From: Escherichia phage JY01
DNA: 64,000 nt
Sequence record: OR995200.1
Strand: one strand, 5' to 3'
The translations under genes were made by a program, and so were the position numbers. Below, piece after piece: positions 45,260 through 46,987 of this stretch. The notes beneath the pieces are model-generated. The model ran no database searches. It saw only the letters and a list, made by a program, of their open reading frames with translations, and had not been told where the DNA came from. Numbering within the stretch: the stretch's first letter is position 1; each line of letters begins with the position of its first letter.

Positions 45260-45285
45260 AAAAAGCCCCAACCTTTCGGTCGGGG
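45260..45285 (-). terminator. Rho-independent terminator (GAAA loop) after RNA gene cluster
   Basis: RNA-sense CCCCGACC-GAAA-GGUUGGGG followed by CUUUUU. Confidence 0.6.
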
Positions 45286-45290
45286 CTAAG

Positions 45291-45596
45291 CCTTGCGGCA
45301 ACCTTGTCGGGGTTCCACCTGCTAAGGCAAGTGTTTGTACGAAACGCCGGGATTCGAACCCGGTTATTAAGCAGTTGACGCTACTCAATATTTTTAAAAG
45401 GCCATATCTCGACCATATCCGAACGTTCCGTCAAAAACGCTACTCGGCTTACGGCAAAGATATTTCCTCGAATCGATAATTCGGTGCGCCGTTTCTGCTG
45501 TGATGTAAGAGGGCATCAATAAACGCAAAGATTATTAACGCAATTCCTTACTCAGGGAACATCAGTCCGACGACTTACCGGTAGCGACCCGGTTTC
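45291..45596 (-). ncRNA. Candidate small stable RNA region with tRNA-like T-arm
   Basis: No ORF; perfect T-arm-like hairpin CCGGG-TTCGAAT-CCCGG (RNA sense) at 45349-45365; bounded by terminator-like hairpin at 45260-45285. Confidence 0.3.
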
Positions 45597-45947
45597 TTAA
45601 TATTCTTTTAAAGCATCAATCTGTTTACGGCGTTCACGCCATAAATCAATTGCTTCATACGCGGATTCAACATTTCGAATTGGACGGCATTTATATAAAG
45701 ATTTGTGATTTTGATATTGCGTAGATAACGGAATTTTATCTAAAAGGTCTTTACGTTCAAAGTATTCGTAACCATCTAAGCCAAATGAACGATTTTTGAG
45801 AAATTGCCAATGACCAAATTCGTTTTGAATATAAATATAATCCGCATGTTGATAAAGTAAATTAATTTCACGAAATGAGATATGTTTTTCATATTCATTG
45901 AAGTAAAATGTTAAATCATGAACTACTAAATAAACATTACCTTTCAT
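45597..45947 (-). CDS. Hypothetical protein embedded in RNA gene cluster
   Basis: 116 aa ORF between candidate stable RNA region and tRNA-Arg; no nuclease motif seen. Confidence 0.45.
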   Translation of the reverse strand: MKGNVYLVVHDLTFYFNEYEKHISFREINLLYQHADYIYIQNEFGHWQFLKNRSFGLDGYEYFERKDLLDKIPLSTQYQNHKSLYKCRPIRNVESAYEAIDLWRERRKQIDALKEY

Positions 45948-45965: not shown

Positions 45966-46041
45966 TGGTCGAGGCAGTAGGGATCGAACCTACGACCTAG
46001 GACTTAGAAGGTCCTTGCTCTTCCTTCTGAGCTATGCCCCG
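45966..46041 (-). tRNA. tRNA-Arg (anticodon UCU)
   Basis: Manual cloverleaf: acceptor 7 bp, D-stem GCTC/GAGC, anticodon loop CUUCUAA, T-loop, CCA encoded. Confidence 0.8.
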
Positions 46042-46045
46042 TAAT

Positions 46046-46121
46046 TGGGGTGACCGATGGGAGTCGAACCCATGACTACGAGAATCACAATCTCGAGTTC
46101 TACCAACTGAACTACGGCCAC
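46046..46121 (-). tRNA. tRNA-His (anticodon GUG)
   Basis: Manual cloverleaf; anticodon loop UUGUGAU, discriminator C73, CCA encoded. Confidence 0.7.
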
Positions 46122-46235
46122 ATTAATACCTACTCCAACAATCAAGATGTCTTCACACGAAATTAAGAGAAGAGTGATCAGTTCAACCCCTATAATCGCG
46201 TCAAGTAGATATTAATGTGACAGTTGTCACAAATT

Positions 46236-46310
46236 TGGCGGACGTGATAGGATTCGAACCTATAACCAATCGCTTAACAGGCGATCGCTCTGCCATTGAG
46301 CTACACATCC
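46236..46310 (-). tRNA. tRNA-Asn (anticodon GUU)
   Basis: Manual cloverleaf; anticodon loop CUGUUAA, discriminator G73, CCA encoded. Confidence 0.7.
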
Positions 46311-46314
46311 AAAT

Positions 46315-46401
46315 TGGTGGGGAGTGATGGAGTCGAACCACCCGAGTCGCAATGACAATGAATTTACAGTCCACACCGCTACCTCTACGGGATAACTCCC
46401 C
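46315..46401 (-). tRNA. tRNA-Tyr (anticodon GUA), long variable arm
   Basis: 87 nt; anticodon loop CUGUAAA; acceptor GGGGAGU/ACUCCCC. Confidence 0.65.
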
Positions 46402-46414
46402 TTAATTCATAATT

Positions 46415-46489
46415 TGGTGGCCCTGGGTGGAATTGAACCACCATCTGGCGATTATGAGTCGCTTGCTTGAACCTTCCAGCTACAGGGCC
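46415..46489 (-). tRNA. tRNA with CAU anticodon (Ile-lysidine or Met)
   Basis: Manual cloverleaf; anticodon loop CUCAUAA; CCA encoded. Confidence 0.7.
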
Positions 46490-46490
46490 T

Positions 46491-46566
46491 TGGTGCTGAT
46501 TGACGGAATCGAACCGCCGACCTTCTCATTACAAGTGAGTTGCTCTACCTACTGAGCTAAATCAGC
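46491..46566 (-). tRNA. tRNA-Thr (anticodon UGU)
   Basis: Manual cloverleaf; anticodon loop CUUGUAA. Confidence 0.75.
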
Positions 46567-46571
46567 AAAAC

Positions 46572-46661
46572 TGGCGGAGGTGATAGGATTCGAACCTATG
46601 AATCGCCGGAGCGACTGCCGGTTTTCAAGACCGGTGCATTCAACCACTCTGCCACACCTCC
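46572..46661 (-). tRNA. tRNA-Ser (anticodon UGA), long variable arm
   Basis: 90 nt; anticodon stem CCGGU/ACCGG, loop CUUGAAA. Confidence 0.75.
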
Positions 46662-46663
46662 AG

Positions 46664-46737
46664 TCTCCATACAAGGATTTGAACCTTGGACCTCCTGATC
46701 CCAAATCAGGCGCTCTACCAAACTGAGCTACACGGAG
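46664..46737 (-). tRNA. tRNA-Pro (anticodon UGG), CCA not encoded
   Basis: Anticodon stem CCUGA/UCAGG, loop UUUGGGA; T-loop UUCAAAU. Confidence 0.75.
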
Positions 46738-46747
46738 TAAATTAAAT

Positions 46748-46821
<74 letters not shown>

Positions 46822-46826
46822 AAATT

Positions 46827-46913
46827 TGGTGCGAGAAGTGGGACTCGAACCCACAAGGAAATCATTCCGCAGCATTTTAAGTGCTGTGCCTTTACCAATT
46901 TGACCATTCTCGC
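46827..46913 (-). tRNA. tRNA-Leu (anticodon UAA), long variable arm
   Basis: 87 nt; anticodon stem CAGCA/UGCUG, loop CUUAAAA. Confidence 0.8.
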
Positions 46914-46914
46914 G

Positions 46915-46987
46915 CTGGGAATAAAGGACTCGAACCTTTGCATCCTGGAATCAAAATCCAGTGCCTTACCAACTTGGCTAATTCCCA
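46915..46987 (-). tRNA. tRNA-Gln (anticodon UUG), CCA not encoded
   Basis: Anticodon stem CUGGA/UCCAG, loop UUUUGAU; acceptor complement exact. Confidence 0.75.

Follow-up and report, generated by a model that had tools for sequence, protein, structure and literature searches.

The 114 nt that separate tRNA-Asn from tRNA-His in the tRNA cluster of Escherichia phage JY01 very probably encode a real, structured RNA that is under selection. Judging from its sequence, this RNA is best read as a third, distinct structured RNA of T-even tRNA operons, beside RNA C and RNA D of phage T4. Its conservation, its strand, its fold, its covariation and its position are demonstrated by the observations described below. 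An earlier note on this DNA had proposed, among other things, a processing signal or a small RNA, and the category was the right one; the choice between a role in cis or in trans, like the excision and the stability of the RNA, is one that we infer, and we tentatively favor a cis role in the processing or folding of the tRNA precursor.

The window, that is, the whole stretch of 64,000 nt that was analyzed, belongs to a T4-type phage of the genus Tequatrovirus, and its tRNA region is 99.8% identical to that of Escherichia phage vB_EcoM-Sa45lw and about 99% identical to that of wV7. In this window, ARAGORN finds 11 tRNA genes on the minus strand (45966-46987), which are arranged in the order Gln, Leu, Gly, Pro, Ser, Thr, Met(CAT), Tyr, Asn, the 114-nt spacer, His, and Arg. 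The remaining gaps of the cluster measure 0-13 nt. According to the ARAGORN gene ends, the limits that had been given for the gap between tRNA-His and tRNA-Asn (46122-46235) are exact. The claim that the spacer is not a tRNA also stands, as ARAGORN makes no call within it and an Rfam cmscan of the spacer gives no match to tRNA or to any other family, even at E<=10. The features of the locus, in the direction of transcription, are the following:

46236-46310, minus strand: tRNA-Asn(GTT), called by ARAGORN; upstream neighbor of the spacer in the window's clade, its place being taken in other genera by tRNA-Gln, tRNA-Ser, or tRNA-Lys.
46122-46235, minus strand: the whole non-tRNA spacer, 114 nt, transcribed together with the tRNA cluster.
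46122-46224, minus strand: conserved core of the spacer, matched by covariance model R1 with 118 bits.
46216-46231, minus strand: palindrome or 5′ accessory hairpin, RNA nt 5-20, UGUGAC-AACU-GUCACA; lineage-specific.
46203-46216, minus strand: 5′ strand of P1, an AU-rich 14-bp helix; RNA nt 20-33, AUUAAUAUCUACUU.
46155-46201, minus strand: P2 arm, RNA nt 35-81; basal helix ACGCGA/UCGUGU, distal part variable between lineages.
46137-46151, minus strand: P3 hairpin, RNA nt 85-99; 4-bp stem with the 7-nt loop UCUUGAU.
46122-46135, minus strand: 3′ strand of P1, RNA nt 101-114, GAGUAGGUAUUAAU; ends on position -1 of tRNA-His.
46046-46121, minus strand: tRNA-His(GTG), called by ARAGORN; adjoins P1 directly, with U at -1, A at -2, and C73-CCA encoded.

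A scan of the transcribed strand for promoters and terminators finds none within the spacer, and promoter-like sites near it are not more numerous than in shuffled sequences. In particular, the spacer holds no intrinsic terminator, that is, no G+C-rich hairpin with a U run; the palindrome is followed by AUUAAUAU. A scan for small ORFs finds none within the spacer either, and the only ORF that reaches into it is a spurious frame of 57 aa that crosses tRNA-Tyr and tRNA-Asn. A host origin of the element was also considered and is rejected, as there is no match to it among 5,426 E. coli genomes, in which the tRNA-His part alone matches hisR. With respect to the cluster as a whole (45966-46987), nearly every tRNA is followed by the linker CCA-AAUU or AUU and most have a U at -1, which suggests a uniform processing context. 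Finally, the idea that the gene called as tRNA-Met(CAT) (46415-46489) is a close copy of the tRNA-Ile(CAT) of T4 does not hold.

Folding of the minus-strand transcript, which had been put forward as a check, gives a three-way junction. The spacer RNA of this strand reaches -32.7 kcal/mol (z = -4.36), and none of 200 shuffled sequences is equally stable; the fold of the plus strand is unremarkable (z = -1.81). The predicted structure consists of the palindrome hairpin and a three-way junction of P1, P2, and P3, which is closed by P1. The family as a whole has a constant P1 in a constant position and a nearly constant P3 (GCA-UC[A/U]UGAU-UGC), while P2 varies in both length and sequence. The P3 loop reads UCUUGAU in the window and UCAUGAU in most relatives and, like the junction nucleotides, it is kept in sequence beyond what pairing needs. 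In the closer relatives, P2 is found in two unrelated versions, A (GGGGUUGAACUGAUCAC...) and B (GGCAGAAGUCAUGAACCUGC), and these occur in all four combinations with two types of P1/P3. Thus, parts of an RNA of 100 nt have been exchanged by recombination.

Other features of the loops and the junction were also inspected. In the same columns of their P2 loops (alignment A3 29-65, approximately 46159-46195 in the window), version A holds the self-complementary hexamer UGAUCA and version B holds UCAUGA. Kissing between the P2 and P3 loops was discarded as a conserved feature, as complements of 4-7 nt occur at different registers in types A and B and none is found in phage CHI14 or in the L228-type element. 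A ribozyme, a riboswitch, or a T-box was likewise discarded, given that there is no Rfam match and that the junction sequences are unlike the hammerhead core.

The strongest support for the fold comes from the way in which it has changed. In an alignment of 20 distinct sequences, fitted to the structure of the model itself and covering a limited number of lineages, the 27 predicted pairs hold standard combinations in 95.9% of the cells, a value that falls to 35-50% if the 3′ partners are slid by 1-3 columns. Changes on both sides are seen in 14 of these pairs, and none of 500 shuffles matches the observed value on any of five measures, which include the two that are least liable to phylogenetic artefact. 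In P1, 98.6% of the cells of its 14 pairs are paired over the 20 distinct sequences, with UA/CG and AU/UA exchanges, and two-sided changes are present at all four pairs of P3. The base of P2 is fully compensated in CHI14 (GAGUG/CAUUC versus ACGCG/CGUGU). In addition, G.U combinations take up 41 of 294 P1 cells (14%). As these would be A.C on the opposite strand, P1 pairing is 98% on the tRNA strand versus 84% if it is read on the other, which indicates selection on the RNA of the tRNA strand. As a whole, the spacer is far beyond chance.

Comparison with homologous spacers in related phages, which the earlier note had also suggested, confirms conservation: the spacer matches 355 phage records by BLAST, and divergent forms are recovered with a covariance model. 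Identity is at least 95% in 197 of these records (Tequatrovirus), 80-90% in about 150, and 75-80% in a few; the relatives in the two lower classes are phages of Klebsiella, Enterobacter, Salmonella, and Proteus. Divergent versions were found with tRNA-His as bait and then with R1, a model built on seven representatives. Loose pattern scans of IMG/VR and metagenomes gave mostly chance matches, out of which R1 picked the true homologues, leaving about 20 real loci after filtering. The element is thereby found in Tequatrovirus, Karamvirus, Jiaodavirus, Gelderlandvirus, and Winklervirus (for instance, in Serratia phage CHI14, with 51 bits by R1), with a reduced form in Gualtarvirus. Four IMG/VR phages of about 170 kb carry it as well, at 25-40 bits by R1. 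Morganella phage Rgz1 has a reduced form of 68 nt, in which P1 is placed around a short unrelated interior and which amounts to a plain hairpin of about 20 bp, and the element of locus L227 is devoid of P3.

By contrast to these phages, T4 is without the element: over its tRNA region R1 finds nothing, the best score being 10.5 bits (E=1.7) and lying outside rnaC and rnaD. The element has no feature annotation among the BLAST matches listed or in the GenBank records inspected, and it is absent from Rfam 15. Neither a description of it nor a Northern blot or RNA-seq record of its accumulation was found in the literature searched, and a screen from 2023 with some 10,000 unnamed viral RNA candidates (PMC10690425) could include it.

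The emphasis of the earlier note was on a palindrome beside the 3′ end of tRNA-Asn. This palindrome is where it was said to be, and it is perfect and not merely near-perfect: on the plus strand, 46216-46231 reads TGTGACAGTTGTCACA, with 7-bp arms around a 2-nt center, and it begins 4 nt beyond the encoded CCA of tRNA-Asn. Nevertheless, the emphasis was misplaced, as the conserved unit is the three-way junction of about 95 nt that lies downstream of the palindrome. The palindrome is outside this core, and the more distant BLAST matches begin past it, at query positions 13-17. By itself, it is not significantly beyond chance. Perfect inverted repeats with 7-bp arms and a loop of 0-6 nt number 84 in the window versus 53 +/- 10 in first-order Markov simulations, and about 0.1 such repeats are expected by chance in 114 nt.

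The two arms of the palindrome differ in their distribution. The 5′ arm is confined to the window's own clade and to Salmonella phage STP4-a, and is absent from Karamvirus, Jiaodavirus, and Winklervirus; the 3′ arm, UGUCACA, shares its end with the first base of P1 and is kept in five lineages. Where both are present, they are kept with three different loops, namely AC, GT (metagenome contig L159), and GAUUAU (STP4-a), which argues that the palindrome is a real but accessory hairpin. UGUCACA also copies the strand that forms the 3′ side of the tRNA-His acceptor stem (GGUCAC). In a joint fold of tRNA-Asn, the spacer, and tRNA-His, it pairs with the 5′ side of that stem, and P1 is thereby extended to about 20 bp.

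In T4, rnaD and rnaC are sited after tRNA-Arg, and their products, RNA D and RNA C, are expressed and accumulate from the tRNA operon, their roles being unknown (PMC3014915, PMC9697503). The window has copies of both on its minus strand, rnaC at 45338-45476 (98.6% identical to T4) and rnaD at 45483-45597 (99%). Between tRNA-Arg and these copies there is a 116-aa ORF, and the copies are unannotated in the close relative wV7; a terminator-like hairpin is located beyond rnaC, at 45264-45287. The spacer was considered as a homologue of rnaC or rnaD and rejected, as BLAST gives only chance words of 6-7 nt, R1 is silent, and the true copies are found at 45338-45597.

The likeness is one of kind. With about 115-140 nt, RNA C and RNA D are encoded on the tRNA strand of the operon but are not tRNAs; they have no ORF, and their bounds are of the type seen in tRNA processing. 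Similarly, the spacer RNA is noncoding, is on the tRNA strand, is preceded by a CCA-AAUU linker, and has an RNase P site as its 3′ limit. In contrast, the spacer RNA has neither the T-arm-like hairpin (GGUUCGAAUCC) of T4 RNA C nor the terminal CCA of RNA D. Its 3′ end is set by the next tRNA, unlike those of RNA C and RNA D.

Some other known systems also resemble the spacer in part. For instance, the leaders and spacers of polycistronic tRNA precursors, which are substrates of RNase P or RNase E, likewise lie between two tRNAs, and here too the 3′ end is the RNase P site and the 5′ end follows CCA-AAUU. However, ordinary spacers of the cluster have 0-13 nt and are unstructured, whereas this one has 114 nt, is folded, and covaries across genera. 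The stems cut by RNase III in the rRNA operon, in T7 (R1.1-type sites), and in T4 tRNA maturation share with the spacer a long helix around an internal domain of a stable-RNA precursor, but P1 has only 14 bp and it encloses the spacer instead of a mature RNA. With respect to the (quasi-)continuous double-stranded RNA of about 20 bp or more that is expected of an RNase III substrate, P1 together with the base of P2 would come to about 20-23 bp if the two are coaxially stacked. YrlA RNAs (RF02553) have a similarly long terminal stem that joins both ends, a domain with several helices, and often a phage or tRNA association. In contrast to them, the element lacks a tRNA-like module, the weak YrlA matches fall on tRNAs, and a Ro/Rsr context is not known here.

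Additional spacers of these operons were noticed during the comparison. In Karamvirus and Gelderlandvirus (L004 1389-1499, and also L005 and L006), tRNA-Gln is separated from the element by another conserved spacer that is not a tRNA; it has about 110 nt and a predicted closing helix AGAGUG/CACUCU, and its three copies are too alike for covariation. The same clusters have a conserved spacer between tRNA-Asp and tRNA-Met. The tRNA-Gln leader of the T4-type cluster was examined as a possible analogue of the element after a closing helix had been suspected by eye, and it was rejected because folding gives z = -2.1 and another pairing.

The position of the element with respect to tRNA-His is its most constant trait of context. 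P1 ends at position -1 of tRNA-His in 24 of the 24 loci where this tRNA follows the element, and the upstream neighbor varies among Asn, Gln, and Ser. At three loci, there is no adjacent tRNA-His. In STP4-a and in contig L159 the tRNA gene has been deleted and the element stays, intact in the former and with signs of decay in the latter; in L213 it lies between tRNA-Lys, its upstream neighbor there, and tRNA-Asn. In an Aeromonas phage, position -1 of tRNA-His is the end of a small hairpin that is unrelated to the element.

In the alignment of tRNA-His genes, position -1 is G in E. coli hisR and U in the phage gene (46121-46122 in the window), which has A at -2 and keeps C73-CCA. All 24 element-linked tRNA-His genes have U-1. 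Nevertheless, U-1 and the element are not strictly coupled, as U-1 is also found without the element in the tRNA-His genes of Aeromonas phages (L221/L224), of a mycobacteriophage (L222), and of L225; G-1 occurs only in the tRNA-His of L230, an IMG/VR phage. The U at -1 bears on the function of the phage tRNA in its host, given the strong dependence of E. coli HisRS on G-1:C73 (PMC9976931, PMC5499578).

The region around tRNA-His is variable in other ways too. At L233 7568-7650, a tRNA-His-like gene is apparently interrupted by an insert past the anticodon-stem region, which may reflect an intron or a disruption. Homing endonuclease genes are found at variable points: segB of T4 (L002 2754-3419) occupies the place of Tyr-Asn-spacer-His of the window, and in Enterobacter phage CW742 (L007 1729-2343) such a gene lies directly past tRNA-His, the encoded CCA of which is missing.

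According to the explanation that we tentatively prefer, the spacer would be a structured module of the polycistronic tRNA precursor transcribed from the minus strand, and it would act in cis. RNase P generates the 5′ end of every tRNA. Since P1 ends at -1 of tRNA-His, the RNase P cut at +1 of this tRNA would at the same time create the 3′ end of the element, and 3′ maturation of the upstream tRNA within the AAUU linker would create its 5′ end. The product would have about 100-114 nt and both ends in helices, and for that reason it should be comparatively stable. It would be of the same kind as "species 1 and 2" of T4 (RNA C and RNA D), though not homologous to them. By folding autonomously, the module may keep tRNA-His apart from the upstream tRNAs and give its 5′ end a defined context. 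The palindrome hairpin, for its part, would tie up UGUCACA, which could otherwise mispair with the 5′ strand of tRNA-His. In addition, P1 stacked on the base of P2 would form a helix of about 20 bp and thus a possible entry site for RNase III, an enzyme that takes part in T4 tRNA maturation according to a passage of PMC4810235 that cites McClain 1979.

A role in cis is favored over one in trans because P1 and its junction with the tRNA are universal, and because Rgz1 keeps nothing else of the element. Nevertheless, several observations are at odds with it. RNase P normally acts poorly on leaders whose pairing extends as far as the cleavage site, and the P1 helix could hinder this enzyme rather than help it. 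P1 would suffice for processing, yet the P3 loop and two old P2 "alleles" are kept, which hints at a specific partner and hence at action in trans. The element also survives at the three loci without tRNA-His, P1, with its 14 bp, is short for RNase III, and the tRNA-Gln leader of T4 has no analogous closing helix when folded.

A trans-acting role is the strongest competitor, although we consider it rather unlikely. In this case, the element would be excised as a stable small RNA that binds a host or phage factor through its P3 loop and its exchangeable P2 arm. For example, it may sequester, as a decoy or sponge, an enzyme of RNA processing or a defense nuclease that is directed at tRNAs, with the adjacency to tRNA-His serving only for processing. 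The conservation of the P3 loop and the junction nucleotides beyond the demands of pairing fits such a partner, and the presence of two unrelated P2 "alleles" in all four combinations suggests that functional variants are being maintained. Moreover, the element remains intact in STP4-a, where tRNA-His has been lost, and in L213, where the two were never neighbors, both of its ends are helical, as in nuclease-resistant RNA, and T4 RNA C and RNA D do accumulate from the same operon (PMC9697503, PMC3014915). By contrast, no target complementarity or loop-loop contact common to all variants was found when these were looked for, and the parts that would presumably be functional are dispensable in some lineages, as Rgz1 keeps only P1 and L227 lacks P3. 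T4, in turn, manages without the element.

A neutral remnant or recombination scar, left by the gain or loss of tRNAs (for instance, if driven by homing endonucleases) and carried along between useful tRNAs, is improbable. The earlier note had raised this idea, which finds no support for the spacer as a whole, as selection at the level of RNA is evident from pairing that is compensatory and rich in G.U: the 14 compensated pairs, the 96% pairing, and the strand-specific G.U over at least six genera need selection on the fold. The region is nonetheless mosaic, with segB of T4 replacing Tyr-Asn-spacer-His and a homing endonuclease past tRNA-His in CW742, and tRNA-His has been deleted beside the element in L159 and STP4-a. 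For the palindrome, an origin as a scar is possible, given that its arms resemble the acceptor-stem strands of tRNA-His and that, taken alone, it is compatible with chance. The palindrome might then be what is left of a deleted copy of tRNA-His whose acceptor stem has collapsed, although this variant shares the low probability of the scar idea in general. The arms, GUGAC/GUCAC, match the outer acceptor pairs of tRNA-His, a likeness that covers 5-6 nt.

It is far less probable that the palindrome acts as a signal at the level of DNA, as a site for a binding protein, a nuclease, or a recombinase. The stretch at 46216-46231 is a perfect TGTGA-N6-TCACA, which is the core of the consensus for CRP sites in E. 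coli, and L159 has the same core with its center inverted from AC to GT. However, this motif is the 7-bp palindrome itself and is thus not independently significant; the arms are 10 nt apart in STP4-a, and not 6, and the motif is absent from most of the genera that bear the element. None of the nearby sites is convincing as a promoter, their number being no higher than in shuffled sequences, and the modified cytosines of T-even DNA make the binding of a host factor doubtful. The resemblance to a CRP site is probably coincidental.

Least credible of all is a degenerate or unusual tRNA, or a tRNA-like pseudogene: although the element sits in a tRNA cluster, has a closing stem and hairpins, and carries in P3 a 7-nt loop like an anticodon loop (UCUUGAU versus UUUUGAU in the phage tRNA-Gln), ARAGORN is silent, RF00005 has no match in the spacer at E<=10, the homologous elements of L004, L005, L218, and L228 have none at gathering thresholds (Rfam returns only tRNAs there), the junction is three-way and not four-way, the 14-bp closing stem runs into G+1 of tRNA-His, and discriminator, CCA, T-loop, and D-loop motifs are all missing.

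Stable RNAs embedded in the tRNA operon of T4 have been known for decades, and reviews give their roles as unknown (PMC3014915). What is new here is a third, unrelated RNA of this kind, which is widespread in Tevenvirinae, has clear covariation, and is tied to one particular tRNA. A bolder proposal, which we regard as unlikely, is that the element is a dedicated device coupled to tRNA-His, either controlling how a 5′ end without an encoded G-1 is made or recognized, or serving after excision as a decoy in trans, with P2 "alleles" that would stem from an arms race. If true, this would be the first function for the stable RNAs of T-even tRNA operons. The natural variants, that is, the two P2 "alleles", the form with P1 only, and the copies without tRNA-His, make the question experimentally approachable. 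In the meantime, hundreds of genomes of therapeutic phages carry an RNA gene that is unannotated in the records inspected.
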